Shown here piece by piece: positions 1 through 23,313 of a stretch of DNA of 27,719 nucleotides. The stretch is taken from the IMG/VR virus record IMGVR_UViG_3300044448_001601, positions 1 to 27,719 of that record; one strand, written 5' to 3'. The notes under the pieces were generated by a model. That model was given only the letters and a program-made list of their open reading frames with translations. It had not been told where the DNA came from and made no database searches. This DNA is from a virus (taxonomy: Duplodnaviria > Caudoviricetes). Made by a program: the position numbers and the translations under genes. How positions within the stretch are numbered: position 1 is the stretch's first letter; each line of letters starts with the position of its first letter.

Positions 1-2
1 AT

Positions 3-2547: not shown

Positions 2548-2566
2548 AAATTTTTAAGGAAGAGAT

Positions 2567-3053: not shown

Positions 3054-3054
3054 A

Positions 3055-3753: not shown

Positions 3754-3756
3754 AAG

Positions 3757-5066: not shown

Positions 5067-5892
5067 TTGGTACGACTGTCCAATCGTGATACCTTATTAT
5101 GGTGGGAAGTATGAGTTGAGCAAGAGATTTGTTCCTCTCATACCCCCACATGATAGGTATTTTGAAGTATTCTCTGGAGGTTTGTCAATGTTCTTCAGAA
5201 AGAATAAGGCAGAATGGAACGTACTAAATGATAAAGACAACAACATTGTCAATCTGTATATGTGTGTGATATATAAACTTGATGAATTAGTAGATACTTT
5301 AAATTGGCTTCCCAAGTCTAGAAAATTATTCTTAGATTTCAAGGTTGAGGTACAAGAAAAAAGAGAGATAGAGATACCTGACCCTTTAAGAGCCGCTAAG
5401 TATTTCTATTGCATCAGACACAGCTTTAACAAATTAATTCATACACCTATGTCCATGATTAAAGATTGGAATAAAAACTGGGAAGAAGAGTTTAAATACT
5501 CAAGAGAAAAACTAGGAGGTAGTACAATAGAGAACCTAGACTTTGCTGAACTAGTAGATAGATACAAACCAAGAGAGGGAGATTTTTGGTATCTTGACCC
5601 ACCGTATTTTGTTGCTCATGAAAAAGGTAATAAGTATTATCAACATAATTTTAATGCTGACGACCATTTAAGATTGAAAGAAAAAGTAGATAAGATACAC
5701 GAAAGTGGTGGAAAATTCATGATTAGTTATGACCATGAAGAAAGAGTTGCAGAACTATATAAGGATTATGATGTAAGAACTATAGACCTTAAATACGCAG
5801 GCGCAACAGATGAAGCAAAGAAAAAGGAACGTAAGGAATACTTAATAATAAATTATGAACCAGCTAATCAAGTTGGTTTATTTGAAGAATAG
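5053..5892 (+). CDS. D12-class N6-adenine DNA methyltransferase (Dam family)
   Basis: PYYGGK (motif X), EVFSGG (SAM-binding motif I), LNDKD and catalytic DPPY. Probable TTG start at 5053 after GAGG (track start 4999). Confidence 0.92.
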   Translation: MPSLDWYDCPIVIPYYGGKYELSKRFVPLIPPHDRYFEVFSGGLSMFFRKNKAEWNVLNDKDNNIVNLYMCVIYKLDELVDTLNWLPKSRKLFLDFKVEVQEKREIEIPDPLRAAKYFYCIRHSFNKLIHTPMSMIKDWNKNWEEEFKYSREKLGGSTIENLDFAELVDRYKPREGDFWYLDPPYFVAHEKGNKYYQHNFNADDHLRLKEKVDKIHESGGKFMISYDHEERVAELYKDYDVRTIDLKYAGATDEAKKKERKEYLIINYEPANQVGLFEE

Positions 5893-5900
5893 GAGCTAAC

Positions 5901-7214
5901 ATGGCAAAGGAAGTAAAAAAAATGCCGTCCGCATCTGAAGCTGAACAAGCTTTATTAGGTTGTATATTGGAAGGCGGTGAGAGAGAGCAAGAGATTGCTA
6001 TGGCTTGGATAAGGGATAACAATGCTTTCTATACTACAGAAAATCAAGATATATGGAAGGCTATGGCTGAACTATATAAAGATGGCGTAGATATAGACTT
6101 TGTTACTCTATCTGAAAAGATGAAAGATATGACAGGTGATAGTAAAGCGTACTATATAACTGGACTTTCTGAATCATTTACATCTAAAAGTAATGTAGAA
6201 AACTATGCTAAAATAGTATGGGAAAGATACATACAAAGAGAGACTGCTAAATCAGCTGAAGCTTTACTTGAGGCTAGTTACGAAGACTATAAAGAAGTAG
6301 GCAGTATTCTAGAAAAACATAGCAAATTAATCGAGGAATTAAGACACGTTCAACCCTCTAAAATAAGAGACATTGAAGTGTTGGTTGAAGAGATGAAAGC
6401 AACTGTGGAAGAAGATACTAATCTGATACCATTTAATCTCGGACACCTTGATACTTTTGCAGGTGGAATGACTAGAAAAGAACTAACTGTACTAGGCGGT
6501 AGGCCTGGTCATGGAAAAACAACTTTGGTAATTAATATTGTAAAAGGATTGATTGAACAAGGATACAGAGTTATGCTATTTAATCGAGAAATGAGCAATA
6601 CGGAGATGTTAAAGAAGATGGCGGTAATGGAGTCGAGTTCTCTAAAATACGGAGATATAAGACGAAATGACCTTAATGAAAATAGTAAAGTTGAGTTTGA
6701 ATCTGTATCAGATAGACTAAAAGGTAATTATAAAGAATTTCTTATGTATGATAACGTAAGAGGACTTGATGATTGTCTAAGAGAAATTGCTAAGCATAAA
6801 CCAGATGTAGTCATTGATGATTATATTCAGTTGATACAAGTAGAAGGCATTAAAGAGGGAAGAAGGTTTGAGATTGAAAAGATAATGCAAGAGTATAAAT
6901 GGATATGTAAGCAAGAGAACTGTTCTGCTATATTAGTATCTCAATTAAATAGAGAGATTGAAAAGAGACTAGACCCTAGACCTCGCATGAGTGATTATGC
7001 AGAGTCAGGTGTAATAGAACAAACTGCTGAATCTGCTATGTTTGTATTCTATGGACATAACTTCGATAGTGACAAATTTAATCCATATAAAAGTGAGATT
7101 ATAGTTGCTAAAAGTAGATATGGAAAGATAGGTACTCATATGGTAGGATTCAATGGAGGAAGATGTAAGTTCTATATGAACTCTACAATGGCGGAGAAAG
7201 ATAATATTGCATAA
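5901..7214 (+). CDS. dnaB: replicative DNA helicase (DnaB family)
   Basis: N-terminal P...EAEQALLG; Walker A GGRPGHGKT; NREMS; Walker B IDDYIQL; SQLNR; ESGVIEQ; AKSRYG arginine finger. Confidence 0.96.
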   Translation: MAKEVKKMPSASEAEQALLGCILEGGEREQEIAMAWIRDNNAFYTTENQDIWKAMAELYKDGVDIDFVTLSEKMKDMTGDSKAYYITGLSESFTSKSNVENYAKIVWERYIQRETAKSAEALLEASYEDYKEVGSILEKHSKLIEELRHVQPSKIRDIEVLVEEMKATVEEDTNLIPFNLGHLDTFAGGMTRKELTVLGGRPGHGKTTLVINIVKGLIEQGYRVMLFNREMSNTEMLKKMAVMESSSLKYGDIRRNDLNENSKVEFESVSDRLKGNYKEFLMYDNVRGLDDCLREIAKHKPDVVIDDYIQLIQVEGIKEGRRFEIEKIMQEYKWICKQENCSAILVSQLNREIEKRLDPRPRMSDYAESGVIEQTAESAMFVFYGHNFDSDKFNPYKSEIIVAKSRYGKIGTHMVGFNGGRCKFYMNSTMAEKDNIA

Positions 7215-7488
7215 AAGTTGTTATGGGTGTTTCTACGAGGTTTCTAGAAAATGTTATTGGTTTCTTGTAACTGGTAATAATGAAGCACCCAAAGCAATCC
7301 CTTCAGATATAATAGACAAGGGTTGTGATAAGTACAAATGTACACCATATGAGAGTACACCAATACTTGAATACATAATAAAAACATTTGATGGCGAAGT
7401 AATTAGCAGTAAATATGAGAGACCTACATACAAAAGAAAGTATGTAAAAAGTCCTCATAAATACTCATATAGGAGAGATGCACAATGA
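7207..7488 (+). CDS. hypothetical Cys-rich protein (93 aa)
   Basis: TTG start after GGAG; CYGC...C...C...C; overlaps both neighbours. Confidence 0.65.
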   Translation: MHKSCYGCFYEVSRKCYWFLVTGNNEAPKAIPSDIIDKGCDKYKCTPYESTPILEYIIKTFDGEVISSKYERPTYKRKYVKSPHKYSYRRDAQ

Positions 7489-7946
7489 CAATAATAGGAA
7501 TAGACCCAGGCCAAGGAGGCGCAATAGCATGTTGGAATAAGGGAATAAAATCATATAAATGTCCACAAAATGTAGAAACAATGGCTGGAGTCGTAGAAGA
7601 ATTCATATTTAATAGTGAAAATATATATGCATATATAGAACAAGTTCATGCAATGCCTCACGATGGAAGAAGTTCTTTATTTAAATTTGGCACTAATTAT
7701 GGAAAATGGTTAGGTATTCTGGGAGCATATCAAATAGAAACAAACTTTGTTAGTCCACAAAAATGGATGAAATATTGGCAAGAAAAACTTGATATAAAAT
7801 TACCTAAAGATAAACCCAGTAGAAAAAGACAACTAAAAGAAATAGCCTCACATTATACAGATAAAAAAGTTACATTATACAATGCGGATGCTATATTAAT
7901 AACAATGTACGGACTGTACGACAAAAGGGAGCAAGAAAATGAGTGA
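7485..7946 (+). CDS. RuvC-like Holliday junction resolvase
   Basis: IIGIDPG (catalytic D), YIEQV (E), SLFKFG, VSPQKW and ADAILI (D) form the RNase H-fold RuvC pattern of phage resolvases. Confidence 0.88.
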   Translation: MTIIGIDPGQGGAIACWNKGIKSYKCPQNVETMAGVVEEFIFNSENIYAYIEQVHAMPHDGRSSLFKFGTNYGKWLGILGAYQIETNFVSPQKWMKYWQEKLDIKLPKDKPSRKRQLKEIASHYTDKKVTLYNADAILITMYGLYDKREQENE

Positions 7947-8124
7947 GAGTGAGTTTACAATATATTACGCAGATACTCTGAATAGAGTTTCAAGAGAAAT
8001 AAAAAGAAACAATACGCCAGAAGGTCAAAACAAACAAACTATTATAGATTTATTAAAAGCACTTAATCAAACAACAAGTCATTTAATAGAACTATTGGAA
8101 TTTGATAATAAAATATTGGCATAA
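7939..8124 (+). CDS. hypothetical protein (61 aa), last gene of the left arm
   Basis: GGGAG RBS; overlaps the end of the resolvase gene. Confidence 0.6.
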   Translation: MSESEFTIYYADTLNRVSREIKRNNTPEGQNKQTIIDLLKALNQTTSHLIELLEFDNKILA

Positions 8125-8167: not shown

Positions 8168-11017
8168 TCACACTTTTTGCCCTTCTTGTTCCATTCTAGA
8201 TAATGCCATTTCAACAGATGTTGGTAGAGTCCCACCACCACGAAGTACATTTGTTCTTTTCTTGTCTTGTCTTTCTTCTCTTTTTGCTTTACGAGCTTCA
8301 GGAGTAGGATAAAATCCAAATTCTTGTTGCAATGCAAATCCTACCTGACCACCTCTTACTGAAGGCCAATGCCTTTCATAAGCTCTTCCTGCGAATGTAT
8401 TTAATATTTTCAACTTTCTACCAAAGTCAGTTGAAGTTGAAGGGTCATTAGCTTCTAGTCCTGAAATAAGAGTAAGGATACTATCTTCATCAAGACTAAC
8501 TAAATCAGTCATAACTCCTATATCTATTATATCACTTAATAAAGGGCCACCTATTGTTCCAAGTATAGGGCCTTTACCAAAGAAAGCAGCATCAACTTCA
8601 TCATCATCCTCACTTGTAAAATAAGTAAACCATTGCTTCATTCTTTCAATAGTGTCATGCTCAACTAAGTTGCTAGCATTTACTCCAAATATTTGAGATA
8701 TAACAGCTGGAACCATAAAATAAGCCATTCCCATTCTGTATGCTTTTTCCAATCCATGAGCAGAAGTATCCTTTCCAACAAAAAAACCAAGAGAATTCAA
8801 AAGTTGCCCAGTTGCAATATCATGTTTAGACTCTCTTAAAATCTTTAAATTCTTTTCAAAGAACTCAAAACTATAATGCTGGAATTGCAACATGAATCTA
8901 CCCATCTTAGTTCTAGATGCTTTATTTTTCGCATAATCTCCATAGTCAAAATGATTCATAATAACCATATTGATTGCATAATTTTTTGCCTTATCTCTAA
9001 TTACTTTTTCAAATTGAGCATCGCTTAAAACTTCTTTACCTTCAGCAATTCTTTTCTTTCCATAATCAGTTTCAGACCTATCTTTCAACATTTGTTCACG
9101 AACACCTGTGGCTTGCATCCATTTATGCATTTGAGCAAATGCAATTTTAAAAGTATGAGCTCTGTTTGTATTTTCAGCCCATCTATGCATACCAGTTATC
9201 ATTTTAGTCCCAGCTACTCCTTGAATTTTGTTTGCAATTTTCTCCATCTTAGTTTCACTGACCATTTCCCACTTACCATCAACGTCGTTCCAAGTCCTAG
9301 TTTTAAATATATTAGATGGAGCATCTAGTCCACTTTGTAGGTATTCTGGAGAAGCTCCTTGAAATAATAATCCAGATTCTCTTAATGCTTTTTCAATATA
9401 TAATTCATAATCACCAGTTTCAAATGTCATCTCTTCTAGATATTTTTTAGCATTTTTTATTTGAACTGGCCCCCAATGAACATAATCTAATAATCTCTGA
9501 GTAAAGTTTCTAGCAGCTCCTCTTGGGTTAAAACCAAGTTTAGATATAAATTCAAAACCAAGTAAAGATTTCATCATAGCTCTAGTATTTCTACTTACAT
9601 CGGTATCTCCATTAACAGCCCTATGCATTTCCTCTATATAACTAGTTAATGTACGAGCATATTCACCAGCATCTCCCTTTGTTTTATAAATTTTCTCAAC
9701 TTTTGTAAGGGATTCTACAATATGAGCATCCATGAAAGCTGCAAAATTAAATCTATTTACATCTTTAATATAATTACTTACAGAATTAACAAAGTTTCTA
9801 CTATAATCATAATCTTGAGCTCTTCCAGTAACGTGACCATCGGCATAATTTTTCATATCATCTAGTATATCATCAACAGTTCTTGTTTTAACTGATTCAT
9901 CATAAGTGGTTGAAGCTTGAAGTTCTTCTACCTTACCCATTAAACCATCCATAAAAGAAGCGTTTAAATCCCTAGTATAATGAGGAAAATAACCTTGTTC
10001 GTACTTAGGCATTAACTTTGATTCTAAAGATTCTAATGTTGCTTTTATCTTTGAAGTACTGTGTCCTGCGTGCTCCATCTTTAATTCTCTAGATTTTAGT
10101 ATCTTTCTAACACCACCCCTCAATGTGTTATACATTCCATCCATCATTGTCATATACGATGTTAAAGCGCTATACATATTGTCGCTCATTTTATCACCGT
10201 TCTCTAATGTTAGTTTTAATAAATCATTTTTATTTAATTTTAATGATTCTTTACCATTTTGAATTCTTTGTGCTTTAGATGGATTTTTTCTTTTTATTTC
10301 TAAAAATTTGTCTTGTAATAACTTAGGTATCCCAGCGGTATGTACTGTATCCTCTCCCTCTTTCTTGCTTTTACCCTCTATTAAATAAAGTAAATCATCA
10401 TATACTTTTAATTCAGAATCTTTAACAAGTTTGTTCATCTCTCTTCTTACTCTTACAATCTCATCAGATGCTCCCGGTTGTTTATTTTGCCAATCAGTTA
10501 TCGCTTGCCTATATTCAACATCTAATGCATCTAATTTATCTTGAGCTTGTTTTAGAGAACGTCCTTTAAAGTATTTCCCAGAACGTATACCAGCTTCGTT
10601 TTTTAAATTGCTAAGTATTCCATTGAATAATGTAGTATCTCTCATTTCGTTTGCTCTAAAATGAAATCCAGAACGTTGCATATCTTTTAATAATTGACCT
10701 ACAACTGGGTCTTTAGCTGCGAAACCAGTAGCTGGTCGCCACCAAGTCTCAAGCCATTTAGTTTCTAATGAACCATTTCTTATATTATTACTTAATTCTC
10801 TTAATCTAGATTTGTAAGAACCAACTTGACCAGCAGATAATTCTGGGTTATGCTCAAGAGTTTTAATGTCCATACCATGAAATTCTGTTTCAACCATTTT
10901 AAAAGCAGCTTCATATGGGTCACTAAAGTAATCTCTGTTAATATCAGACTCAGCCCATTTCTTAATACCCCTTATTAATTCTTGAAAATTTTTATTAGTT
11001 GGGCAAGCTCTAGCCAT
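8168..11017 (-). CDS. large internal virion/ejection protein (949 aa)
   Basis: The ATG at 11017 overlaps the upstream TAA (TAATG). Motifs GYFPHY, KLGFNPRGAARNFTQ and NHFDY...GRFMLQFQHYSF, plus hydrophobic C-terminal segments, recall large ejected proteins of podoviruses. Function is inferred from motifs and position. Confidence 0.6.
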   Translation of the reverse strand: MARACPTNKNFQELIRGIKKWAESDINRDYFSDPYEAAFKMVETEFHGMDIKTLEHNPELSAGQVGSYKSRLRELSNNIRNGSLETKWLETWWRPATGFAAKDPVVGQLLKDMQRSGFHFRANEMRDTTLFNGILSNLKNEAGIRSGKYFKGRSLKQAQDKLDALDVEYRQAITDWQNKQPGASDEIVRVRREMNKLVKDSELKVYDDLLYLIEGKSKKEGEDTVHTAGIPKLLQDKFLEIKRKNPSKAQRIQNGKESLKLNKNDLLKLTLENGDKMSDNMYSALTSYMTMMDGMYNTLRGGVRKILKSRELKMEHAGHSTSKIKATLESLESKLMPKYEQGYFPHYTRDLNASFMDGLMGKVEELQASTTYDESVKTRTVDDILDDMKNYADGHVTGRAQDYDYSRNFVNSVSNYIKDVNRFNFAAFMDAHIVESLTKVEKIYKTKGDAGEYARTLTSYIEEMHRAVNGDTDVSRNTRAMMKSLLGFEFISKLGFNPRGAARNFTQRLLDYVHWGPVQIKNAKKYLEEMTFETGDYELYIEKALRESGLLFQGASPEYLQSGLDAPSNIFKTRTWNDVDGKWEMVSETKMEKIANKIQGVAGTKMITGMHRWAENTNRAHTFKIAFAQMHKWMQATGVREQMLKDRSETDYGKKRIAEGKEVLSDAQFEKVIRDKAKNYAINMVIMNHFDYGDYAKNKASRTKMGRFMLQFQHYSFEFFEKNLKILRESKHDIATGQLLNSLGFFVGKDTSAHGLEKAYRMGMAYFMVPAVISQIFGVNASNLVEHDTIERMKQWFTYFTSEDDDEVDAAFFGKGPILGTIGGPLLSDIIDIGVMTDLVSLDEDSILTLISGLEANDPSTSTDFGRKLKILNTFAGRAYERHWPSVRGGQVGFALQQEFGFYPTPEARKAKREERQDKKRTNVLRGGGTLPTSVEMALSRMEQEGQKV

Positions 11018-14000
11018 TAACATTCACCTTCGTCATACTTTCTAATTCTTTCATCTATAAATTCTCTTTTAGTTTTATTAGACCTATATCCAACATTATC
11101 TCTTACTTGGCTTAAGTTATCAAACATTTGTTGCATAGACCTAAGTCTTTCGTGACTTAAAGTTGATGTCTTTTCAAGAGACATTGAATTGTAATATTTA
11201 CCACCACCCATCAATGCATAGACTGGATTATCTTTTATGTTTTTTACATTCTGATTATTCTGACCCATTAATTCAGGGTTTGTTAAAACTCTTTGAGCTA
11301 AGTTTCTCATTTTATCATCAAGAGATGCTCTATCTGCTAAATAATCCATCGGATGAATAATTCTATTAGACATTAATTGAGAATTTATATCAGTCATGTC
11401 ATCTAAATACTCTCTAAATTGTTGCTCTTGTCCAGATATAATTGCTATATTTCTATATAAATCAATTAAATGGTCATTCATTATATTAAATCCATCACTA
11501 ATTCTAGACTTATCCCTAGACCATTTTATCCTACTAAAGCTAGTTAATCCCCTGCTCATATCTTTATTCAAATCTGGCAATCTAACATCTTCTATCCTAA
11601 GATTTCTAACGCCTCCCCTAACTGTAACATCCATAGGGTCATCAACTAAATTATCACCTATGAGATTAATCCTATCAAATCTATCATTAAAAAATCTTTC
11701 AAATTGAGATTCCATAGTTTGCAAATTTCTTAAATTTTGTCTTACAATGTCTTGAGCATCAGGGCCAAATCCACCTTCATTTTCTGGTTTTAAGAAATCA
11801 ACCATACTATCATCATTAGGTCTTGTTTCAGCAACCCTAGTAAGGAATTGCAATCCTCTTTTATATCTATTTGATTTAGCATAAGGTATATCTATTAATC
11901 TACCATTATGAACACCAATGTTTTTTCTATCTTCAGTTGGTTTCATATATTCTAATACGAAATTAAATCCATATTCATTTAATCCCTTCATTAATAACTT
12001 ATGCTCCACTTCATAAAAAGTAGTAAGGTCTGGAGTTGTTCTTAAATACTCAATGGATTCACTATCTAAAATAGTTCTGTCACCATATTCCAATATATCT
12101 TTAAATGTATCTTGATTGCTAAAGAATTGCTTTCTCATATATAGTATTTCTTTTAAAAATTCCCTAGCTGGAGCTCCTAATGTTTTACCATAAGGAAGTA
12201 TCCTTTGAAGATTGTCAATAGCACTATATTGAATAGTTCCATCTTTAATATCGTCCTCACCAATCCATTTAAATCCAATAATACCATCTTTTAAATCTTT
12301 ATACTTTTTAGTTTTTTTGTATTTCTCTGGTATTAAAGCATCTGGTATTTCAGACTCAAGTTCCTTAATAAACTTATTAACTTTATCTATAGCTACTTTT
12401 CTTTTTACATGAGGAAGTTTACTATTCTGTATATCGATTATTTTCTTTTTTAAATTACCTATTAATTTAACTTTTTTCTGATGAGACCATTTACCTTCTT
12501 TTATTTCATGTTGAAATCTATCCGTAGCTTCAGATACATCTTTATCAGTTCCAGTTCTTAATTGCTGATACCATGAATCCATCAACTTTTCTTTAGCACC
12601 ACCAATGGAACGAACAGTTGTTTCTTCAAATGGGTCTCTTCTTGCAAATTGAGTCATTATTCTATCAACAACAGAGCCCCTTTCCCCCATAGCCATTTGT
12701 TTAGCATTGTTGTCTATTCTATTTTGCCCCATCAAGTCTTTAAAAATATCCCTTGACGGTTTCCAATATTTCTTTTTGTATTTTTTACCCTTATCCCACT
12801 TATCATATGACTTAGTCTCAACTCCAAAATAATCATTAAAATTCGAATCATCCATCCATTTTTTACTATCTGGGTCATCTGAGTCTATTCGCCTATGCCT
12901 TAAATTATAATATATACTATTACTAATATCACCCATAAACCCAGAATACTTTTTAGCAGCGGACATTACATCGGTAAACCTAGGAGGTCTTTGGTCTCCA
13001 GAATTTTCCCACATTGTTTTCCCAGTTGCATTTAACAATGAATTATATTGACTAAGCATTTCTTTTATAACAGCTTTCTCAATATTCGTTAAGTCAACTT
13101 CTTGCTTCTCTCCCTTGCTATTAGTTTTAAACTTTCTAAATACCCTAACTCTTTTTGAGTCCTTTTTGTGTTTAATATTATCAATAAAACCCATACCTCC
13201 ATTGTCTCTTATTGATTCACCACCAGCAATTGAGTTACCAATAGACGGAAAAAGAAATTTATCTTTCCATCTTCTTAAGTTGCTTGAAATTTCTGGATTA
13301 AGTTTTCCGCTTCCATCTATAATATATTGAGTTTCAAGAGCAGACCTCATAAAAAAATCTACATTTTGATAATCAATCGTAATAACACTATTGTCATTTG
13401 GGTTGTTTAATAAAACCTTAGCAGGAGCTCCTTCAGAACTGACAAGTTTTCCATCTTGAATTGTTTTAGTTTTCCTTTTAGACTCAGCTCCATAAAAAGG
13501 CTCAAGACCATAAAGGCCAAGTTGTTCATTTGGTATAGTATCAGCTAAGTTATCTAATGCAGATAAAGCTCTTGGAACTTTCTGAACAGTCCCTATGTTT
13601 TTTGTAAATTGTTCATTATCAGCGTATGATTCCCATCTTTTATCCCTATCATTTACTGGAGTTAATCCGACATTGCCTTCCGATGGTATCTTATATGAAT
13701 CTGGGTCTACTCCATTTATAAAATGTTGTTGAGTTCTATGAACATGATTCCACATTTCTTTTTGATGAGCAAAAAAGTAATCAGCCTTATCAACATCGTA
13801 ATCACCTTCAAATATATTTACAACATCAAGGCTAGCTAGTTGTATAGAATTGCCATAATCCCTATGTAAGAACCCTTTTAATCCCAACACTGTCATATCA
13901 TTAGGTCTAGTTCTAGGCTTTCTATTAACAATAACTCCTATTTCAGTATCTTTCCCCAATACAGAATTTGTAAACTGTATAAATTCATGCATTTCACCAA

Positions 14001-17000
14001 GAGTCCAATTTTGCATTTCTTCTTTTGAAAACTCACTATCAAATTTTCTAGTTCCTTTGCCCCTAACTATATATCCAACATCTTCAAAAACCTGTCTTTG
14101 ATATTCTACAATGTCATCTATAGTTTTATAATCTTTACCTAAATCTTCAACAAACCTTAATTCAAATCCATCTTTAGCCAGCTCACCTAATCTCATCCTA
14201 GATTCATATTGACTAAGCATAACCTGACCTCTCATAGCTATGTCTCCATCTTTTTTCACAATCGTAGGTCTCAACCTATCCGCTCCCCTAGCACTTTGTA
14301 TAATTATTGACTGACCACCATACCTATCAGAACCTTCACCACCGTCATATTGGTTGCTAACTGAACGCTTTCCATTTACTAAAGAATTTATATACATAGC
14401 ATATAATTTATTCTTAGCTATGTTGTCACTATAACTTAAAGGATTAGCATCCCTTGAGTATGTTGCAAAATGAACAATATTATTTAATTCACGAAGGCTT
14501 TGATTTTCACCATTCATATTTGGAGCTAATCCATCTTTAGCAGCTTCAGCTAATATAAACTTTCTCATTGCTATGGGGTCTTGAGCAATAGATTGCATAG
14601 CATCTAGGTTATAATCTAAATATCTTTCATATTGGTTTCTAAAAATCTCTCCACTTTCAGCATTGTCTGCATAATTAAAATTTGAAAGAGACTCTGGAGA
14701 TGTTTTAAATGGAGTATCTGATTGTGGCTGAAGCCCTAAAGCTTCTATACTTATTTTTCTTAATCGACCATTACCTTGACCATAATATCTAGTAGTTTTA
14801 TCCTTTCCAGAAATATAATTCCAGCTTCTATTAATCATCGACAAATCTTTTACAGAACCATCTTTTTGAATCTTTTCATTTGAATTCATAACTTTAGCTC
14901 CACTCTTACTTAAAAGAATGTCAGCTTCTGGATTACTTCTAAAGAAAGAATCTAATTCCCTAGTATAGACTAACAATGTTTTACCAAGTAATAATGGTTT
15001 ACCCTCACCATGAGAACTTATTACAGGTTTAATAGGGTTTCTTGAGTTATGGTTATGACCCATTAAAGCATGAGCAGCTATCATTGTACTTTCATTAACA
15101 AATGCTATACTATCAAAAGCTGATGTATCTTGATGAGCCTTTCCTTGCATTTCATCCCAAGTCCAATCTTTATAATTCGCACCAAGCTCTCTTCTTATAA
15201 TAGACTCTGTGTCGTCCCTAACTGTATTATATCCTTCATCATTCCAAACGAGGACACCAAACCCATCATTATCTGCAACTCTTTTTAATGCCGTAGCAGC
15301 TCTTTTAGAAGAACGTTGCCTACCAGCTTCAGCTGCAATACCACCAACTGTATTTATATTATAATTATGTTCAAATCTTTCAACTGCTTCGTATATCTGT
15401 GCTAAGTTTTCTACAAAATCTTTATCAAATCTTGTAAATTTCTTAGTATGCATTAATTTTATTCTACCACTTATTTTATCTTGATTTTTCCCATTAAGGA
15501 AATCTATAAACATACTATCTTTAAACCCACCAACTTTTTCCGTACCAGTAAGCATCTCTTTATGAGTTAGTCTATGTAGCATATACTCAGCTTCAGCTGG
15601 ATTGATAACAGTATCTTTTCCATCTGATTCTATTCTATCAATTTTATCTATTAATGTTTTCCATACTTTTGTTTCTTTAGATATTTCTGGATTATCTTTG
15701 TATTCATCATATAATTTTTTAAATGGTTCAAACAATTTTTTAAATTGACCTCTTTCAATGGCAATTACATCAGTTCCATTTCCTATCCTCATAACTTCTA
15801 ATCCACCTTCTTTAGAAGCTAGGCTATCACCATTTGGAAGTTTCATAACTCCCTTCATTAATCCTTGAAATACTGATAATTGAGAATTAACTGTATCAGC
15901 ATATCCACCAGCTGTTTTATCAACGTTTTGAGATTTACCAGAAAACAAATCAACATGTCTTAATCTAGTGTATCTACCACCAACGCTTTCAGTAATTGGA
16001 GCCATTGGATTTATTCTATAATAAGTCATTCCCATAGTGTTCATAAGCACATCAAATCCAGTTCTTTGATGAACTTTGCTTTCAACTTTTAAATTACCTC
16101 TATTAAAAGATATTTCAGTCACTGGTTTTTGCCTATGCTGGCTACCTACTAAGTAAGCATAGTCTTTTAAAGCATTTGTAAGTTTACCAGCTACTAATGA
16201 TTTTTGATTAGTAAGAGCTAATTTTGTCCACTTACCAAATGAATCTTCAATATAAACATTATTCGTAAATCTGGTAAAAATATCTTTATGTAATAATCCA
16301 ATAGCTCCATCCTTATTAACATCAGCATAATTATTATATATTAATTTTTGAAATTCATCAGCCATTTCTTTAGAACTAAGTTGACTAACATCGTTATCTT
16401 TATGCCCAAATCTATATTTACTCCAGAATTTTTGAAGAGTTATTGGTTTAGATTTGTCTCTTTCATAAACATCATCTAGTAATTTTTCAGTTGTAGCATC
16501 TTCTATTTCTTGATATGTCTCCTTTGAATAATTTGCATCATATCCAAATTTTTCCATATTGATAGTAAGTTCATCTGAAATTTCCTGAGCCTTCTTTAAC
16601 CAACTTTTATTCAATTTCCAATTACCAGCTCCAACACCCGGTTTGCTTATAACTTTAGCAGCTACTAACCATTTACTAAGTCTAGCTGCATTTGCTGGAG
16701 AACCATTTATAAATATTTCAATATTCTTCCTTAATGTTTCGTAACTCTTACCATCACTAGGTAAAGCTGCTATAAATTGAGTAATTGCTTGAGTAGCGTC
16801 AACATACTTACCCGGTGATTTGTGAATAATTCCATCTATCATTTGCATAAAAGCATTATCAGTTGAAACATACTTACCAGTTTCTAAGCTAACTAATCCC
16901 TCAGAATCATTAGCTCTTCTTTTACCATCTGAAATAAGTCTATCAACCCAATCATTATATTCTTTTGCTCTTCTATATTCTACTGAATCATTATTCAATA

Positions 17001-19986
17001 CATCTAAATCTATTTTCTTAATAGAAAAACCAGCGGCCTTACCCTCAACAGCAGCTTCAAAATTGGCAAGACCTCTATCAGCTAATTCAAACAATGCATC
17101 AGTTTGGTCTAGAGATAATCTTGAGTCTTGAACTCTTTGTCCAACTATATAATCAACTATTTGATTATGCATCCAATCATTTTTCAAACTAGATTTTAAT
17201 TGAAATCCTTGGTCAGATAAAAAATGTTGTAATTTCTGAACGTCTTCATATTTTACACCAACCTGCTTAGAGCTCTTTGTGCCTTCAGAAGCTAGCTTGT
17301 AACCTCCAGAAGCTGCTTGTATTGTTAATACCCTACCAAGCAATCTCCTAGCTTCAGAAATATCCATATCTGCATTACTAAATGATTCTTCATCAAATTT
17401 TATATTTCTAACATCCTTCCTAAGAACAGGTTCAGATTCTGTTGGGCCTTGAAGTAATAAATCAGTACTGATTAATTGAGATATTAAACCACTTCTTACA
17501 TTACTTGGGGCTCCAGCTTCAAATATCTTTGAAACGCTATCAGCAGACCTTATAGCAACATTTCTTGATAATATATGTATGTAATCATTAAAAGAACCAA
17601 AGAATGAAAACTGTTCTTGCATATGCCTATTGTCTGGATACCTTTGTTGAATTGTATCTTCAGCATTTTTAATTGTTTTAAATACACCAGCTAATAATTC
17701 AGAAGACTCTATTTGCTTGGTTTGTAAATCTGTATTTGGATTTTTTTCTCTTGCCCCAATAAGGTCAACAGTAGTTAATACAGAATTAAAACTAGCTATC
17801 TTTCTATTTAAAGCATCAAGGGCATCTTGACCTTCTAATACATTTCCATCAGAATCAACAAGAAGAGGATTGTTATTTTCATCAACTAATAACCCTTTTT
17901 TAGCAGCTTGTTTAATTGAATTGCTAACATTTACTCTCGCAGGAATCCTACCGGGTGAAGATTTATCATTATAGGAAGTCATTTCAAGTTCGTTATCTAT
18001 ATTTTCATCTATACGTCTAACGCTCTCGACCACATCAACAAAATCTTGTTCAAAATCTTTAGTAGCGGATAAAGTAGATTTATCAAAAGCTTTTAAAAGT
18101 TCTTCCGTATCTGCTTTTCTCAAATCTGGATTAATCTTATAGACCTCTTCCATTATTTGCTTAGCTTCTTTAACAGATATTTGCTCAATAGGTTTATACA
18201 TGGATTCTTCACCATGATTAATTAATTTTTCATAGACTATTTCAAATTTTGGAATTCTATTTTCTTGCATAGCTACGCTTTGCTCACCTGCTTTTAAATT
18301 AGTTTCAACAATTTCAGGAGTAGATGATATTATTCCTAAATCCCTAGCCGTATCTACAATAGGTGACCATTCTGTACTATTGAAAGGACTATTCAATGCG
18401 CTATCTCTATATTTTAATGTTGGTATCTCATTAAATTGTCCAGGCCCTACACCAAGTCTCATTAAATTACCACGAAGTTGGTTAACACCTTTAGGGCTCA
18501 TATCAAACTTCGCAGGGTTCGCATGTCTTTGAATCCAAGCTCCAATAAGAAAATGAGGTAATATGTCGTTTACACCTAGTTCTGCCCCATTACGAGCCAT
18601 TTCATAGAACGAATGTAAATTAAATAAAGCTCCACCAGCTATCATTCTAGGCCATACCTCAGCTAGATTTCCAGCAGCTTCTTTAGTTGCGAACCTCATT
18701 AATTCTTTACCCATTTTACCTTTAGTACTTTCCATAAATTCTTTTAAAGCAAATTGAGCATCTTTGCCAAATGTTGACCTTAGTTGACCTAATACATCCC
18801 CATGTGTTAAATCTATTCCAATGGCTTTTTGACCTTTATAACTTATATCTACTAAATGACTTACAGGTTGTCCCTTTAAAGCTTCTGTTCTTTTTAAAGA
18901 CTCTCCCCAGAATTGAGCTGAAGCTTCTATTTGCTTAGCACTCATATTTCTATATAAATCTTTTTTACCAAAAGCTGCTTTAATGCCATGCACCATATCC
19001 TTCTTCCAAGAAGCGGCTGCCCCTCTAGGCATTAACCATCCCAAAGCTCCAAAACCAAGACCAGTTGCTGCTCCCCACATTGGCTGAGTCCAATCAAAGT
19101 TGCCATCCTCAAACATTGTCATACCTTCAAATGTAGTATCAACAACTGATAGCATAACTGCATCATTAATAATATGTGAAAGAGTTTTAGCAGCTCTAGG
19201 ATTATTTGCAAATATTCCACGTTCTGTCATTACTCCGTACCAATCTTGAATTGGTCTATTTTTTAATGCAGGGCCAAACATTTTCTTAGCAGCTACTACT
19301 TCACGAGCAGTTAATTCTCCAACTTGTTCAGCTCTAGATAAATATTGACTTAGAAAATCTTCTGATTTCTTAATAAACTCTCCACCACGAAGTTGATTAT
19401 TGTACTGAGCTTGATTAACAATAGATTTATACCCAGTGGTAATCTCATCAATAGTGTCGTCACCTAATCCCTTTGCTCTTCCCCTCTTAACCATTTCACC
19501 AACAACTTCATCAACATGTTTTTTACCAGTACCTTTCGTAGCCGCCTTTGCTAGCATTTGGCTTATTTTCATACCAGTTTTTAATGGAGCTCCTCCAATA
19601 AACCCTGCAAATCCTCCAATAGCACTAGTCCATTTAGCCATAGGGTCATCAAAGTCTATATACTTTTCTTCGTCTATTAATGCACCAGCCGCTCCGAAAG
19701 AAGCACTATCAGCAAAACTCCAAAGAGCTGCTCCAACTGCGTTTAAAGCACTTGGTTCTACATTAAGAGGGTCTGGTTGATAAGATTGAGCCCATTGCTC
19801 ACCAGAAGAAACATTGGAAACTTGCTCTGGTGTAACTACATTAGAATTACCAACAGTAAATCCCTTAGGTTGGTTTTTTAATGGAGAAGATAATTTATCT
19901 AAGGCATCCTGAACCTGCGTAAGACTAGCTGCTGTCCCACGTTCTTTTAATATAGCTTGTATATTTTTTGTAAGATTATCAGCCAT
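11017..19986 (-). CDS. giant virion protein with a two-barrel (DPBB) RNA polymerase domain; putative virion RNA polymerase
   Basis: 2989 aa. Catalytic-loop-like GDYDVDK (D2062/D2064/D2066, nt 13789-13803) preceded by RKP (R2022), LKGFL and YGNSI. Second-barrel motifs: AFDS (D1625), IKPV (K1653), LGKT (K1669) and SGAKV (K1698). Located in the ejection-protein block. Confidence 0.8.
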   Translation of the reverse strand: MADNLTKNIQAILKERGTAASLTQVQDALDKLSSPLKNQPKGFTVGNSNVVTPEQVSNVSSGEQWAQSYQPDPLNVEPSALNAVGAALWSFADSASFGAAGALIDEEKYIDFDDPMAKWTSAIGGFAGFIGGAPLKTGMKISQMLAKAATKGTGKKHVDEVVGEMVKRGRAKGLGDDTIDEITTGYKSIVNQAQYNNQLRGGEFIKKSEDFLSQYLSRAEQVGELTAREVVAAKKMFGPALKNRPIQDWYGVMTERGIFANNPRAAKTLSHIINDAVMLSVVDTTFEGMTMFEDGNFDWTQPMWGAATGLGFGALGWLMPRGAAASWKKDMVHGIKAAFGKKDLYRNMSAKQIEASAQFWGESLKRTEALKGQPVSHLVDISYKGQKAIGIDLTHGDVLGQLRSTFGKDAQFALKEFMESTKGKMGKELMRFATKEAAGNLAEVWPRMIAGGALFNLHSFYEMARNGAELGVNDILPHFLIGAWIQRHANPAKFDMSPKGVNQLRGNLMRLGVGPGQFNEIPTLKYRDSALNSPFNSTEWSPIVDTARDLGIISSTPEIVETNLKAGEQSVAMQENRIPKFEIVYEKLINHGEESMYKPIEQISVKEAKQIMEEVYKINPDLRKADTEELLKAFDKSTLSATKDFEQDFVDVVESVRRIDENIDNELEMTSYNDKSSPGRIPARVNVSNSIKQAAKKGLLVDENNNPLLVDSDGNVLEGQDALDALNRKIASFNSVLTTVDLIGAREKNPNTDLQTKQIESSELLAGVFKTIKNAEDTIQQRYPDNRHMQEQFSFFGSFNDYIHILSRNVAIRSADSVSKIFEAGAPSNVRSGLISQLISTDLLLQGPTESEPVLRKDVRNIKFDEESFSNADMDISEARRLLGRVLTIQAASGGYKLASEGTKSSKQVGVKYEDVQKLQHFLSDQGFQLKSSLKNDWMHNQIVDYIVGQRVQDSRLSLDQTDALFELADRGLANFEAAVEGKAAGFSIKKIDLDVLNNDSVEYRRAKEYNDWVDRLISDGKRRANDSEGLVSLETGKYVSTDNAFMQMIDGIIHKSPGKYVDATQAITQFIAALPSDGKSYETLRKNIEIFINGSPANAARLSKWLVAAKVISKPGVGAGNWKLNKSWLKKAQEISDELTINMEKFGYDANYSKETYQEIEDATTEKLLDDVYERDKSKPITLQKFWSKYRFGHKDNDVSQLSSKEMADEFQKLIYNNYADVNKDGAIGLLHKDIFTRFTNNVYIEDSFGKWTKLALTNQKSLVAGKLTNALKDYAYLVGSQHRQKPVTEISFNRGNLKVESKVHQRTGFDVLMNTMGMTYYRINPMAPITESVGGRYTRLRHVDLFSGKSQNVDKTAGGYADTVNSQLSVFQGLMKGVMKLPNGDSLASKEGGLEVMRIGNGTDVIAIERGQFKKLFEPFKKLYDEYKDNPEISKETKVWKTLIDKIDRIESDGKDTVINPAEAEYMLHRLTHKEMLTGTEKVGGFKDSMFIDFLNGKNQDKISGRIKLMHTKKFTRFDKDFVENLAQIYEAVERFEHNYNINTVGGIAAEAGRQRSSKRAATALKRVADNDGFGVLVWNDEGYNTVRDDTESIIRRELGANYKDWTWDEMQGKAHQDTSAFDSIAFVNESTMIAAHALMGHNHNSRNPIKPVISSHGEGKPLLLGKTLLVYTRELDSFFRSNPEADILLSKSGAKVMNSNEKIQKDGSVKDLSMINRSWNYISGKDKTTRYYGQGNGRLRKISIEALGLQPQSDTPFKTSPESLSNFNYADNAESGEIFRNQYERYLDYNLDAMQSIAQDPIAMRKFILAEAAKDGLAPNMNGENQSLRELNNIVHFATYSRDANPLSYSDNIAKNKLYAMYINSLVNGKRSVSNQYDGGEGSDRYGGQSIIIQSARGADRLRPTIVKKDGDIAMRGQVMLSQYESRMRLGELAKDGFELRFVEDLGKDYKTIDDIVEYQRQVFEDVGYIVRGKGTRKFDSEFSKEEMQNWTLGEMHEFIQFTNSVLGKDTEIGVIVNRKPRTRPNDMTVLGLKGFLHRDYGNSIQLASLDVVNIFEGDYDVDKADYFFAHQKEMWNHVHRTQQHFINGVDPDSYKIPSEGNVGLTPVNDRDKRWESYADNEQFTKNIGTVQKVPRALSALDNLADTIPNEQLGLYGLEPFYGAESKRKTKTIQDGKLVSSEGAPAKVLLNNPNDNSVITIDYQNVDFFMRSALETQYIIDGSGKLNPEISSNLRRWKDKFLFPSIGNSIAGGESIRDNGGMGFIDNIKHKKDSKRVRVFRKFKTNSKGEKQEVDLTNIEKAVIKEMLSQYNSLLNATGKTMWENSGDQRPPRFTDVMSAAKKYSGFMGDISNSIYYNLRHRRIDSDDPDSKKWMDDSNFNDYFGVETKSYDKWDKGKKYKKKYWKPSRDIFKDLMGQNRIDNNAKQMAMGERGSVVDRIMTQFARRDPFEETTVRSIGGAKEKLMDSWYQQLRTGTDKDVSEATDRFQHEIKEGKWSHQKKVKLIGNLKKKIIDIQNSKLPHVKRKVAIDKVNKFIKELESEIPDALIPEKYKKTKKYKDLKDGIIGFKWIGEDDIKDGTIQYSAIDNLQRILPYGKTLGAPAREFLKEILYMRKQFFSNQDTFKDILEYGDRTILDSESIEYLRTTPDLTTFYEVEHKLLMKGLNEYGFNFVLEYMKPTEDRKNIGVHNGRLIDIPYAKSNRYKRGLQFLTRVAETRPNDDSMVDFLKPENEGGFGPDAQDIVRQNLRNLQTMESQFERFFNDRFDRINLIGDNLVDDPMDVTVRGGVRNLRIEDVRLPDLNKDMSRGLTSFSRIKWSRDKSRISDGFNIMNDHLIDLYRNIAIISGQEQQFREYLDDMTDINSQLMSNRIIHPMDYLADRASLDDKMRNLAQRVLTNPELMGQNNQNVKNIKDNPVYALMGGGKYYNSMSLEKTSTLSHERLRSMQQMFDNLSQVRDNVGYRSNKTKREFIDERIRKYDEGEC

Positions 19987-21560
19987 TAATAATCTTGTTC
20001 GTTAGCCCATACTGAATACAAGTTGTGAACTTCATTTAAAGTAAGACCTAAAGCTACAAGGTCTCCTATTGGTAAGAGAGGGCCATCAGCAGCCGCTAGA
20101 CCTGCGTAAGAAGTAAGTTTAGCACCAAGTCCAGCTGTTAATTGTTTCTTAGCAGCTCCAGAAGAGAGCCAATTTAAGAAAGTTCTTTTTCCCCTTCCTT
20201 TAATTTGATTTTGTAACATTACAGCTGATGCACCATGTCCAACACTTTGACCAACTTTTTGACCAGTGTCGCCAAATATACTTCCAACTGCTCCAGCAGC
20301 CATAGGGACAATAAGAGGAGCTGAATAAGCTAATGTATTTCTAAGACCAACAGATGGTTTCCAATTAACTTTTTCCCATTTTAAATCCATATTTTGAAAC
20401 CATTTATATGGATTCATTACAAACTTATCACCCCATTTACCCATAGTTGTTCTATTTTTATAAGCCCATTCCTTAGCTTTGTCTTGTAATGCTTTTCTTC
20501 CAGCTTTGGTTTGAGCTTCAGTTTTATTCATACCATATTTATCTGCAAATTCTTTAGCATTTAATATATCTGTATCTTTACCAATAGCTCTTGCAGTATT
20601 TTCTTTCATTAAATCAAGGTATTCAGTTACACCCTTAGCTGATTGATAATCATGAAAAGATTTAGCCCCCACCACAGCTGGAGCAGTCCACATAGCTACG
20701 TTAGCAGTTGTTCCAACTACATTGCCAGTCGCATCCCAAAATGATTCAGAAGCTTCTTGGTCTTGTTGTTGTATTAATCCATGCTTTTGTATCTGTTCAG
20801 CTGCTTGTAATGCATCTAATTGATTTAAGGATTCCCCAACCTTTTCTTTTTCAGTAGGCTCTGTTGCAGTAATTAATTGTTCTTGAAATTCATAATCACC
20901 ACTCATTAACTCCATTCTTTCCTTCATAATTACTTCATCGTTTCTTTTACTAGCAACAGCTTGCGATAAAGTTTTTAAATTATTCTTATCATCAAGATTA
21001 TATTGCAATCCCATTAAAGCATTAATTATTCTACTTTGCTCAGCTGTTCCCTCAAGAGGGCCTGCTTCTTTAGCATTATGAACATCTATTGCAAAATCCA
21101 ACAAAAGAGAAGGGTCTTTAGCTATTTTATAATTATATAAAGCTGATGCTAATTCTTGTGATGTATTTTTATCAAATGTGATTTTACCATAATCTTTTCC
21201 TCCAAATTTTATATTTTGGAAATTATCTTTATCATTCAATGCATCAGCTAAGTCTCCTATATGGTCTTCTATGTCGTCTCTGTCGTCACCTTTCTCTGGA
21301 GCTGGAATAGTATCAGCAAATCTTCTAAGATTGGATTCATTTAAGAATTTATCTACAACTTCTGTTTTAAGCATACTATTGTATTTAGAAGAGTCTTCTA
21401 GCATTTTACTAGCTAAGTTGTATTTAGAAACATCTTGCTTAGCTTTGTATTCCATTATAGCTAAAGATTGAGCTACATCGTCTCTATCTTTCTTTTGTTG
21501 ATATTGTAGTATTCTTGTTAATGCTTGTAAAGCATCAGCTCCATATGGATTTGTAGGCAT
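19986..21560 (-). CDS. putative internal virion/ejection protein (524 aa)
   Basis: TAATG-coupled on both sides; helical charged N-half and Gly/Ala-rich hydrophobic C-terminal segments. Confidence 0.55.
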   Translation of the reverse strand: MPTNPYGADALQALTRILQYQQKKDRDDVAQSLAIMEYKAKQDVSKYNLASKMLEDSSKYNSMLKTEVVDKFLNESNLRRFADTIPAPEKGDDRDDIEDHIGDLADALNDKDNFQNIKFGGKDYGKITFDKNTSQELASALYNYKIAKDPSLLLDFAIDVHNAKEAGPLEGTAEQSRIINALMGLQYNLDDKNNLKTLSQAVASKRNDEVIMKERMELMSGDYEFQEQLITATEPTEKEKVGESLNQLDALQAAEQIQKHGLIQQQDQEASESFWDATGNVVGTTANVAMWTAPAVVGAKSFHDYQSAKGVTEYLDLMKENTARAIGKDTDILNAKEFADKYGMNKTEAQTKAGRKALQDKAKEWAYKNRTTMGKWGDKFVMNPYKWFQNMDLKWEKVNWKPSVGLRNTLAYSAPLIVPMAAGAVGSIFGDTGQKVGQSVGHGASAVMLQNQIKGRGKRTFLNWLSSGAAKKQLTAGLGAKLTSYAGLAAADGPLLPIGDLVALGLTLNEVHNLYSVWANEQDY

Positions 21561-22231
21561 TAGAATAAACCTCCGAGACCTGAATTATCAAATGTTTCTT
21601 GAGCCAATTTCTTTTCTCTTGTAAACCTTGCTCTTTCAGATTTTATTCTACCCTTTTCGCCCTCATACCACCCTTCAATACCAGCCATTGTTTCACCAAG
21701 CTTACCCATTAATCCTTCCACTCCAGATGTGTATGTTTGAGCAACTCTTTTAGATTGAGTAGATTCTTTTTCTTTTAGAGTTCCAGAATTAGCCAATCCA
21801 CTTTTCTTAACGGCTTGGTTCATTTGTTTATTAATATCAGCAACAGTGGTATCTAATTCACTTGCAAATTTTTGTTTTGAATGTTCATGTGAGCCTAATG
21901 CAAATGCAGTCTTAGCTTCCTTAGCTGTTTCTAAACCTGTTTCAGCTCCCTCTAAAGATGCTAATCCTTCATTAGCGGCTGATATAGCTGCCTTTGCACC
22001 AGATTGTGCTATCTTACCACTTTGATGCGACTGAGCAAGTGATGTTACAAACATCCCAGCTGCAGCCCACGGGAAGAATTCTTTTAATCCAGTTTGAGGA
22101 TTGATAGAACCAGAACCTCCCATAGCTTTTAATAAGTTTTGTTCTTCTTTAGTAACGTGAGCTAATTCGGTATCGCCATGCCTTCCTTTATTAGCTAATT
22201 GTGATAAATGATTGTTTGCTATACTTGCCAT
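21560..22231 (-). CDS. putative internal virion/pilot protein (223 aa)
   Basis: N-terminal GRHGDTELAHV...LLKAMGGSGSINPQTGLKEF module that I recognise from small phage virion proteins, then a hydrophobic stretch and an Ala/Gly/Lys coiled region; AGGA RBS. Confidence 0.6.
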   Translation of the reverse strand: MASIANNHLSQLANKGRHGDTELAHVTKEEQNLLKAMGGSGSINPQTGLKEFFPWAAAGMFVTSLAQSHQSGKIAQSGAKAAISAANEGLASLEGAETGLETAKEAKTAFALGSHEHSKQKFASELDTTVADINKQMNQAVKKSGLANSGTLKEKESTQSKRVAQTYTSGVEGLMGKLGETMAGIEGWYEGEKGRIKSERARFTREKKLAQETFDNSGLGGLF

Positions 22232-22243: not shown

Positions 22244-23074
22244 TTACCTTCCTACTAATGACCTATGCATATTTGCATATTGCCTTTGCGGTGAATGTTC
22301 TGAATTTTTATCAAAGTAACCAGATTTTTTAAACTTTTCTAATTCTTCTTTTGTTAATTGATTTAAAGGCTTTGAAAAATCAAATTTCTCTTTTTTAGGA
22401 GGGCCTATAAATTGTTTGGGGCCTTGAATTTCTTTTTTCTTTTCTTTCTTTACTTCATTATCGCTCATATTGGATTCTTTAGCCATTGAAATCTTTTCTT
22501 TTTTCTTTTTGCCTAATCCAGTCATTGACTTTTCTCCCCACAAGTCTCCTAAATCAAATCCTTTTCGCTTTCCATAATGTTGTTTTTGTTCTTCTTTATG
22601 CTCTTGCTTTGCAGTATCCGATAAAACTCCAGTTACCCCTCCAGTAGATAGAGCAGCATTTCCTCCAGATAAAATTGTTCCCTGAGTAGTCACACCAGTC
22701 TTGCTAAATGTAGTAGTTTTTCCTGTATCATCAGCAAATGTATATTGTCTAGATTTACCACTAACTGCATCCCAAAGCTTTTGACCAAAACCTCTTGAAT
22801 CTTTTTGTAATTCTCCATACTTACCACTGTCTTCAATGTTTTTTAAATCTTGTTTAAAGTCAGCTTTTTCTTTTAATGAATCATGAATAGCTCCACCAGC
22901 TTCAATTAGGGAAGTGATAGCTCCAAACTTCATATCTGATTGTTGTTGTCTTTGCTGTGTTTCTCGACTAGTAAATGATAATTCGTCACCAGCTATACTA
23001 GCATCAGTAATATCAGCCTTGTATTCAGCGCCAGCTTTTCCAGCAGCCATAGCTTTATCAAAAAGATTACCCAT
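22244..23074 (-). CDS. putative internal virion protein (276 aa), low complexity, Lys-rich C-terminus
   Basis: Long ORF heading the ejection block; Gly/Thr-rich middle and Lys-rich tail. Confidence 0.55.
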   Translation of the reverse strand: MGNLFDKAMAAGKAGAEYKADITDASIAGDELSFTSRETQQRQQQSDMKFGAITSLIEAGGAIHDSLKEKADFKQDLKNIEDSGKYGELQKDSRGFGQKLWDAVSGKSRQYTFADDTGKTTTFSKTGVTTQGTILSGGNAALSTGGVTGVLSDTAKQEHKEEQKQHYGKRKGFDLGDLWGEKSMTGLGKKKKEKISMAKESNMSDNEVKKEKKKEIQGPKQFIGPPKKEKFDFSKPLNQLTKEELEKFKKSGYFDKNSEHSPQRQYANMHRSLVGR

Positions 23075-23124: not shown

Positions 23125-23313
23125 CTACGCTTTATCTAATATTTTCTTGTACATAACACCATTACTTTTAATATACTCAACAACTCCCTCATCAGTCCGT
23201 CTTATTTCTGGAGTGCCTTCTCTCAAATCAGATAAAATTGGTTTACCTTCACGAATTTGTATTCTTTCTTGTTTTTTATGCAATGCGACTCTTTCTTGTC
23301 TTGTCATTGTCAT
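23125..23313 (-). CDS. hypothetical protein (62 aa), probably virion-associated
   Basis: ATGA overlap with the stop of the tail-tube gene. Confidence 0.65.
   Translation of the reverse strand: MTMTRQERVALHKKQERIQIREGKPILSDLREGTPEIRRTDEGVVEYIKSNGVMYKKILDKA

Follow-up and report, generated by a model that had tools for sequence, protein, structure and literature searches.

Does a giant reading frame from a seawater virus encode an RNA polymerase that is carried in the virion and ejected into the host, as in crAss-like phages, and is the phage itself then crAss-like? This question is raised by the Caudoviricetes record IMGVR_UViG_3300044448_001601, a linear virus record of 27.7 kb, rated 49% complete, of which we analyzed positions 1 to 27,719 (the window). 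An initial annotation, made from the letters of the window, had described a 2,989-residue protein on its minus strand as a packaged two-barrel RNA polymerase of the crAss type. The results described below support the placement of the predicted protein in the two-barrel polymerase superfamily, with both barrels in one chain, on the basis of conservation and a structural model. The gene and its parts are as follows.

11017..19986, minus strand: predicted single-chain two-barrel RNA polymerase gene, 2,989 amino acids, likely virion cargo (open reading frame, motifs, model)
14887..15129, minus strand: motifs of the first (beta-like) barrel, residues 1620–1700, with D1625, K1653, K1669 and K1698 (conservation; putative counterparts in gp66 of phage phi14:2)
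13774..13935, minus strand: motifs of the second (beta-prime-like) barrel, residues 2018–2071, with R2022-x-P2024 and the loop G-D2062-Y-D2064-V-D2066-K (loop at 13789-13803)
13546..13659, minus strand: candidate bridge helix, residues ~2110–2147, with invariant G2132 (model helices, conservation and a weak match to gp66 1544–1553)
13315..13362, minus strand: candidate trigger-loop helix, residues ~2209–2224, with invariant Q2220 and D2224 (proposed by eye from gp66 N1608/D1612)
12550..15549, minus strand: modelled polymerase core, residues 1480–2479, predicted local distance difference test score (pLDDT) 80.9, predicted template modelling score (pTM) 0.83, aligned to gp66 876–1844 (structure prediction)
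11020..11022, minus strand: C2989, the final residue of the polymerase and its sole cysteine

The frame was open over its whole length, and the stretches quoted in the initial annotation were recovered at DTSAFDS 1620, NPIKPVI 1650, LLGKTLL 1666, SKSGAKVM 1693, VIVNRKPR 2018 and DYDVD 2062, with R2022, K1653, K1669 and D2062/D2064/D2066 numbered as before. DYDVD, residues 2062–66, is the single DxDxD sequence within the protein. An [RK]xP...DxDxD pattern has been applied in the available supplement of PMC10770324. When the protein was shuffled 2,000 times, 0.6% of the shuffles contained R-x-P followed after 30–50 residues by D[FY]DxD, and 5.3% contained R-x-P with any DxDxD; the motif taken alone is suggestive, short of decisive.

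To judge conservation, close homologues of residues 1550–2350 were aligned (120 sequences, 24–99% identity, mostly 2,800–3,000 residues long, one of them a 99% near-copy). The results showed that D1625, S1626, K1653, P1654, G1668, K1669 and K1698 are invariant in all 120. At the second barrel, where three rows are gapped, G2061, D2062, Y2063, D2064, D2066 and P2024 are invariant in 117/117 rows and R2022 is kept in 116, in line with the residues that had been singled out as catalytic. The protein is most conserved in exactly these parts, as residues 1601–1700 and 2001–2100 hold 22 and 27 positions conserved at more than 90%, compared with 0–14 in the remaining bins of 100 residues. When 1.84 billion representatives were searched with a profile, 234 clusters (50% identity) were returned at an expectation value (E) of at most 0.001, many of them fragments. 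A deeper alignment was then made from 116 of 187 available regions, comprising all new and distant ones and every third close one. Among its 112 non-gap rows the three aspartates were kept in 112, 112 and 111, while R2022 differed in 4/112 and D1625 was replaced by asparagine in 9/109. Distant homologues of 2,800–3,100 residues keep the catalytic residues, with DYDID, DFDID or DHDLD as their loops. Since the catalytic motif residues are conserved across homologues, beyond the chance rate of the motif, we hold the observation to be real. D2062, D2064 and D2066 would thus bind magnesium, and we infer that D1625, K1653, K1669, K1698 and R2022 complete an active site built from both barrels.

The fourth position of the loop, valine in the window protein, is occupied across the 117 rows by alanine (71), valine (26), phenylalanine (19) or isoleucine (1), and never by glycine. 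The loop had been called divergent; the motif is there, but the adjective does not fit, as crAss-like phages all have isoleucine or valine at this position (10.1101/2020.03.07.982082, available text). Two variants were seen at the edge of the family. Seven distant homologues of the deeper alignment have a D-H-D-x-D loop, and in three others P-A-P-R-T-G-P replaces the family's R-x-P-R-T-R-P ahead of an R-D-[YF]-D-T-D loop, the canonical arginine being apparently lost or shifted.

The core was modelled from 74 sequences and compared with 48,161 solved chains using VIA-align. The best match was phi14:2 gp66 (6VR4), with Z 12.0, root mean square deviation (rmsd) 4.9, 610 aligned residues and 11% identity, model residues 9–992 lying on chain residues 876–1844. 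It was followed by QDE-1 (Z 10.6, rmsd 5.7, 469 aligned) and RDR2 (Z 10.3, rmsd 5.7, 420 aligned), and lower down by human Pol I (Z 9.2) and, at rank 5, P74 gp62 (Z 9.1, rmsd 4.7, 390 aligned). Ranks 1–12 were two-barrel polymerases only, and the first unrelated row had Z 7.7. A search of BFVD gave 31 matches at E of at most 0.001; the top five were unnamed and were followed by many pieces of giant crAss-like phage proteins, with phi14:2 at rank 50 (E 0.0078). The model thus bears out the initial annotation as to a single-chain two-barrel fold closest to that of gp66, with QDE-1 next.

The gp66 protein is a demonstrated early-gene transcriptase (10.1101/2020.03.07.982082, available text). It shares with the window protein the order of the motifs in one chain, a non-glycine fourth loop residue and a similar spacing from the arginine to the first aspartate (40 residues here, 39 in gp66). 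When profiles were compared with 120 sequences of the gp66 family, the three top blocks were the three motif blocks, collinear although not significant singly, and they aligned D1625 with D962, K1653 with K1012, K1698 with K1065 and DYDVDK with DFDIDK. To judge from the spacing, K1669 is probably the counterpart of K1027, although it falls one column off in the alignment. D962, K1012, K1027 and K1065 are invariant in 119/119 gp66 homologues. The two proteins differ in size (2,989 residues here, 2,180 in gp66) and in the start of the core (near residue 1,490 here, 880 in gp66). In gp66, an autoinhibitory domain at 196–233 blocks the cleft; our model begins at residue 1480. In several crAss gp66 homologues, the chain also includes superfamily-1 helicase Pfam domains, and 0/120 homologues of the window polymerase have a precomputed Pfam domain. 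The polymerase was also considered as a fusion of gp67 and gp66, on the grounds of position and cysteines; the N-terminal ~1,400 columns gave no significant whole-protein match to 11 phi14:2 proteins including gp67 (best E 0.31).

Virion polymerases of the N4 type have a T7-like fold. The N4/DEV virion polymerase operon of the Schitoviridae is similar to the present locus in that a giant cysteine-depleted polymerase stands in a podovirus ejection-protein operon (PMC11445570, PMC13434306, available text); the same sources treat the structure of the N4-type enzyme as distinct from that of gp66. The N4-type enzyme has no cysteine, whereas one terminal cysteine is kept here. According to the available text of PMC10770324, P23-45 gp96, a tape-measure-fused virion polymerase, and the non-virion enzymes P23-45 gp64 and P74 gp62 are phage single-chain two-barrel polymerases as well (8H2N, 8F5M). 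P23-45 gp96 also belongs to a giant virion protein and matched our model with Z 6.9, rmsd 5.3 and 347 aligned residues. P23-45 is, however, a long-tailed phage of a thermophile; it has two polymerases, with DFDGD in that of gp96, as opposed to a podovirus nozzle and one recognized polymerase here. The eukaryotic RNA-interference polymerases QDE-1 and RDR2 (7Y7P, 7W84), although similar in their single-chain two-barrel fold, are cellular proteins of about one-third the size, with fewer aligned residues and no virion context.

The surroundings of the gene bear on whether the enzyme is virion cargo. The neighbouring features are the following.

3..8124, plus strand: convergent replication module with PD-(D/E)XK nuclease, DUF932, adenine methylase, DnaB and Holliday junction resolvase; these genes are probably transcribed by the polymerase
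8168..11023, minus strand: 951-residue gene (949 residues if begun at the ATG at 11017, which overlaps the stop of the polymerase); its one cysteine is close to the N-terminus (codon 11003-11005); placed as gp65 is in phi14:2, and likely an ejected partner
19986..21560, minus strand: 524-residue protein free of cysteine and mildly hydrophobic in three stretches, likely ejection or channel protein, its stop overlapping the polymerase start
21560..22231, minus strand: 223-residue cysteine-free protein, likely small ejection protein
22244..23074, minus strand: 276-residue cysteine-free protein, likely small ejection protein
23310..25973, minus strand: 887-residue predicted podovirus tail nozzle of the T7 gp12 / Sf6 gp14 / crAss muzzle class (model and fold search)

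The nozzle is thus followed by the genes for 276, 223 and 524 residues, the polymerase and the 951-residue gene, which meets the replication module head-on; the GC (guanine-cytosine) skew changes sign at ~8,100, at the junction of the two converging arms (1–8124 and 8168–27719). We take the 887-residue protein to be a podovirus nozzle because the top 15 structural matches of its model (pLDDT 86.3) were all phage tail chains with Z 16.2–22.5, the best being Pa223 (Z 22.5, rmsd 3.7, 454 aligned) and the others including GP4, SU10, the crAss001 muzzle, T7 and Sf6. In 79 related loci, many of them incomplete, blastp found the 951-residue gene in 70 and the nozzle in 54. The layout in phi14:2 matches, as its replication genes converge on g065, g066 and g067, followed by tail genes, and its polymerase gene likewise shares the strand of the structural genes and runs toward the replication module; two large genes are found here, compared with three in phi14:2. 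In some crAss-like phages, the three cargo genes are fused as one polyprotein (10.1101/2020.03.07.982082, available text).

The block of five genes contains 2 cysteines in 4,963 residues, compared with 32 in 2,186 residues for 13 early reading frames. Over the 79 loci, internal cysteines were absent from 209,409 residues of polymerase and from the two genes before it; the third gene before it had 4 in 19,281 residues and the gene after it 1 in 59,483, compared with 13 per 1,000 residues for replication genes and 6.5 per 1,000 for the nozzle. Cysteine suppression has been reported in ejected proteins of N4-like phages (PMC11445570, available text). It is on account of the gene position behind the nozzle and the cysteine depletion that we call the polymerase virion cargo, and we infer that it is packaged and ejected. 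The 951-residue family has invariant G-x-x-P-H (residues 344–348) and H-F-D-Y (691–694) motifs and two hydrophobic stretches near the C-terminus. It gave an Atlas lead to LPD39 on 28% of a single cluster and no meaningful match among PDB sequences.

By comparison with the crAss enzyme, the polymerase very probably acts as follows. It would be housed in the head of a marine phage with a short tail, leave through the nozzle and tail together with four neighbouring proteins, cross a Gram-negative envelope partly unfolded and then refold. As a DNA-dependent enzyme with magnesium held by D2062/D2064/D2066, it would transcribe the replication genes on the opposite strand before the host polymerase takes over. 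The early-gene role is proposed by analogy with phi14:2 only.

Several results count against this proposal. An hmmsearch of the polymerase profile against gp66 gave no match; hhalign against gp66 gave E 0.15–0.24, and 0.046 at best with a deeper profile, none significant; and the deep profile reached E 0.31 at best against 120 gp66-family proteins. Searches of PDB sequences with phmmer and with a profile returned nothing relevant. A Z of 12 is moderate for a helix-rich model of 1,000 residues, and the match is a global one of aligned ranges, in which barrels and catalytic aspartates are placed without residue-by-residue superposition. The model spans residues 1480–2479, about one-third of the protein. 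No hydropathy segments of at least 1.2 were found in the polymerase, and a search for promoter motifs found none. Sigma-70-like sites in window positions 1–11500 numbered 46 against 51.3 expected. Of the repeats in early regions of four relatives, most were ribosome-binding sites or pairs without an explanation; the window does not include the left genome end.

That the cargo may also be linked together is suggested by the single cysteines that remain at the ends of these proteins, a pattern that the initial annotation had not described. Among 108 close homologues of at least 2,700 residues, a cysteine was present in the last 8 residues in 108/108 and in the first 12 in 0/108, and 107/108 had none inside; a further 38 full-length polymerase representatives all had exactly one cysteine, in 37 of them within the last 8 residues. 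The 951-residue family (n = 58) showed the reverse, with a cysteine in the first 12 residues in 57/58 and in the last 8 in 0/58. In phi14:2 (g065-g067, L094:10997-27200), gp67 has C1797, its last residue, as its only cysteine, gp66 has C3 and C2179 only, and gp65 has C3 only. Among 117 gp66 homologues of at least 2,000 residues, the N-terminal cysteine was found in 114 and the C-terminal one in 111. Both phages thus have a polymerase with a C-terminal cysteine and a next gene with an N-terminal one, although the window polymerase, unlike gp66, has no N-terminal cysteine. Because of these counts in both lineages, the ends of the polymerase and the 951-residue protein, and those of gp67, gp66 and gp65, are complementary in gene order. 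The last codon of the polymerase, for cysteine, and the cysteine codon of the next gene stand 15 bases apart (11003-11022, minus strand) across an overlapping TAATG stop/start, and the polymerase start overlaps the stop of the 524-residue gene in the same manner.

As far as it goes, the pattern of residues suggests, as its simplest reading, a head-to-tail disulfide chain that orders ejection. C2989 would be disulfide-bonded to the single N-terminal cysteine of the 951-residue protein, and the cargo would stay tethered in gene order until the reducing cytoplasm frees it, for which we see a chance slightly below even. The wider proposal, held just as tentatively, is that in the marine lineage and in crAss-like phages alike single terminal cysteines join the injected cargo into a daisy chain that follows the gene order. 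The result would be a redox-cleavable pseudo-polyprotein, passing through the tail as a single string and set free in the cytoplasm of the host. Literature searches, which did not extend to subscription papers, found no report of terminal cysteines in crAss cargo. The terminal cysteines alone could equally serve metal binding, links between copies of the same protein, attachment to a third protein or modification, instead of a link between polymerase and partner; we give this an even chance. The residues flanking both terminal cysteines vary among homologues. Late phage proteins are synthesized in the reducing cytoplasm, and the disulfide would therefore need to form after lysis or in the periplasm. 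On the other side stands the strict complementarity in gene order, a gene with a C-terminal cysteine being followed by one with an N-terminal cysteine: the first gene of the run lacks the N-terminal cysteine (0/108 here, and phi14:2 gp67), and the last lacks the C-terminal one (0/58 here, and gp65).

As regards the enzyme itself, the best surviving alternative, although improbable, is that an ejected two-barrel polymerase serves chiefly for priming, for RNA-templated synthesis as in QDE-1 or for genome pulling, and not for mRNA. It would agree with the second and third ranks of QDE-1 and RDR2, with the preference of gp66 for single-stranded DNA in vitro (10.1101/2020.03.07.982082, available text) and with the lack of hits to any DNA polymerase family in the scanned subsets of the proteins of relatives (59, 28 and 48 proteins, not a full inventory). 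Sigma factors and second RNA polymerase families gave no hit in these subsets either. The closest structure, gp66, is nevertheless a transcriptase in the same genomic position, these phages carry their own DnaB or primase-helicase, and genome pulling is compatible with transcription and hence no alternative. In two relatives, G002 and G003, a primase-helicase of ~577 residues (L087:7649-9379, L092:15017-16750) replaces the DnaB/methylase set while the structural arm is kept; the gene-poor end of G002 has a 151-nucleotide direct repeat of 82% identity (L085:1-151 and 2068-2218).

Still less probable is a two-barrel polymerase that is made during infection and stays unpackaged, like P23-45 gp64, serving middle or late genes. 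The fifth rank of the non-virion P74 gp62 in the fold search would fit such an enzyme, but the window gene follows the nozzle on the structural strand and overlaps the stop and start codons of its neighbours, and its product is five times as large as gp62 and free of internal cysteines in 79/79 loci. Hardly credible is a structural ejection protein in which the polymerase is a dead remnant or the motif has arisen by chance, for although the loose motif does occur in shuffles and sequence searches against protein families and the PDB were empty, the three aspartates are kept in close and deeper alignments alike and the top of the fold ranking consists of polymerases only. Ejection of an active polymerase that transcribes early genes is thus the reading that we prefer.

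The second part of the question is whether the phage is crAss-like. As the window has no head genes, the tests for Crassvirales were run on four relatives, whose genomes of 51.6–54.5 kb are rated 92–100% complete; phi14:2 has 100,418 bases and crAss001 ~103 kb. The capsids of the relatives matched SU10_MCP (PF17236) above the cutoff in 4/4 and Crass_capsid in 0/4, whereas the phi14:2 control matched Crass_capsid with E 8e-200. P22_portal was matched by 4/4 portals but not by the portal of phi14:2, and the portal and terminase PHROGs differ (156 and 38 in the relatives, 6547 and 6681 in phi14:2). Head proteins of two relatives gave a best blastp E of 0.015 against phi14:2. The terminases of the relatives have ~520 residues; that of one relative matched 628 phage records, and among the best 40 of the 628, at 23–25% identity, none was named crAss-like. 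The window nozzle did not match PF25731, whereas the phi14:2 control matched crAss_MUZ; the crAss001 muzzle ranked fourth in structure (Z 19.6, rmsd 4.4, 561 aligned), behind Pa223 and tied with GP4 and SU10.

The translation signals differ as well. Shine-Dalgarno-like words preceded 15/22 window genes and 18/32, 25/34, 18/31 and 22/30 reading frames of the four relatives, compared with 2/37 annotated phi14:2 genes (3/42 by the same reading-frame rule) and a background of ~0.11. Bacteroidota rarely use Shine-Dalgarno sites, and their use in the window and its relatives argues against a Bacteroidota host. The relatives are thus set apart from phi14:2 by genomes of ~54 kb, an SU10-type capsid, a P22-like portal and Shine-Dalgarno sites, and the phage, judged by its relatives, fails the tests of capsid, portal/terminase and genome size and appears to lie outside Crassvirales. 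Of the crAss-type designation in the initial annotation, the part that concerns the enzyme stands, with gp66 as nearest fold although not with significant sequence similarity, and the part that would extend to the phage does not. The polymerase would work like the crAss virion enzyme, yet is outside the gp66 family at the sequence level.

All 20 listed sequencing runs holding the polymerase gene were seawater or marine plankton metagenomes; 10 of these are possibly its source, and the others belong to a single named study or to no named one. No RNA datasets holding the gene were listed. A GTDB scan for a host gave 63 pattern matches, none of them a relative. Acinetobacter and Pacearchaeota labels on two homologues were considered as hosts but not used, as they probably reflect viral contigs in genome bins.

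The expectation that such a protein would be labelled hypothetical was borne out, as 'hypothetical protein' was the name of the homologues wherever a descriptive one was given. Pfam and PHROGs searches of the polymerase gave nothing significant, and tblastn against 50,697 phage records (GenBank phages) gave no significant match. No description of the family was found in literature searches, whose coverage did not include subscription papers, one archive of PMC10770324 and the table of conserved gp66 residues; neither GOVbin nor 'Prokaryotic dsDNA' appears as an entry in the available supplements of PMC10770324.

Single-chain two-barrel polymerases carried in the virion occur in crAss-like phages, whose signature they are taken to be, and in P23-45. 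The family described here places a predicted polymerase of this kind, unseen by Pfam, PHROGs and sequence search, in a podovirus lineage of ~55 kb with other head genes and probably another host phylum, and it adds to the possible sources of the eukaryotic RNA-interference polymerases. How cargo of several hundred kDa leaves a phage head in order is an open question, to which the pattern of terminal cysteines is relevant. If the disulfide chain is real, the shared cysteine mark would mean that one polymerase-ejection module is older than unrelated capsid lineages or has moved between them.

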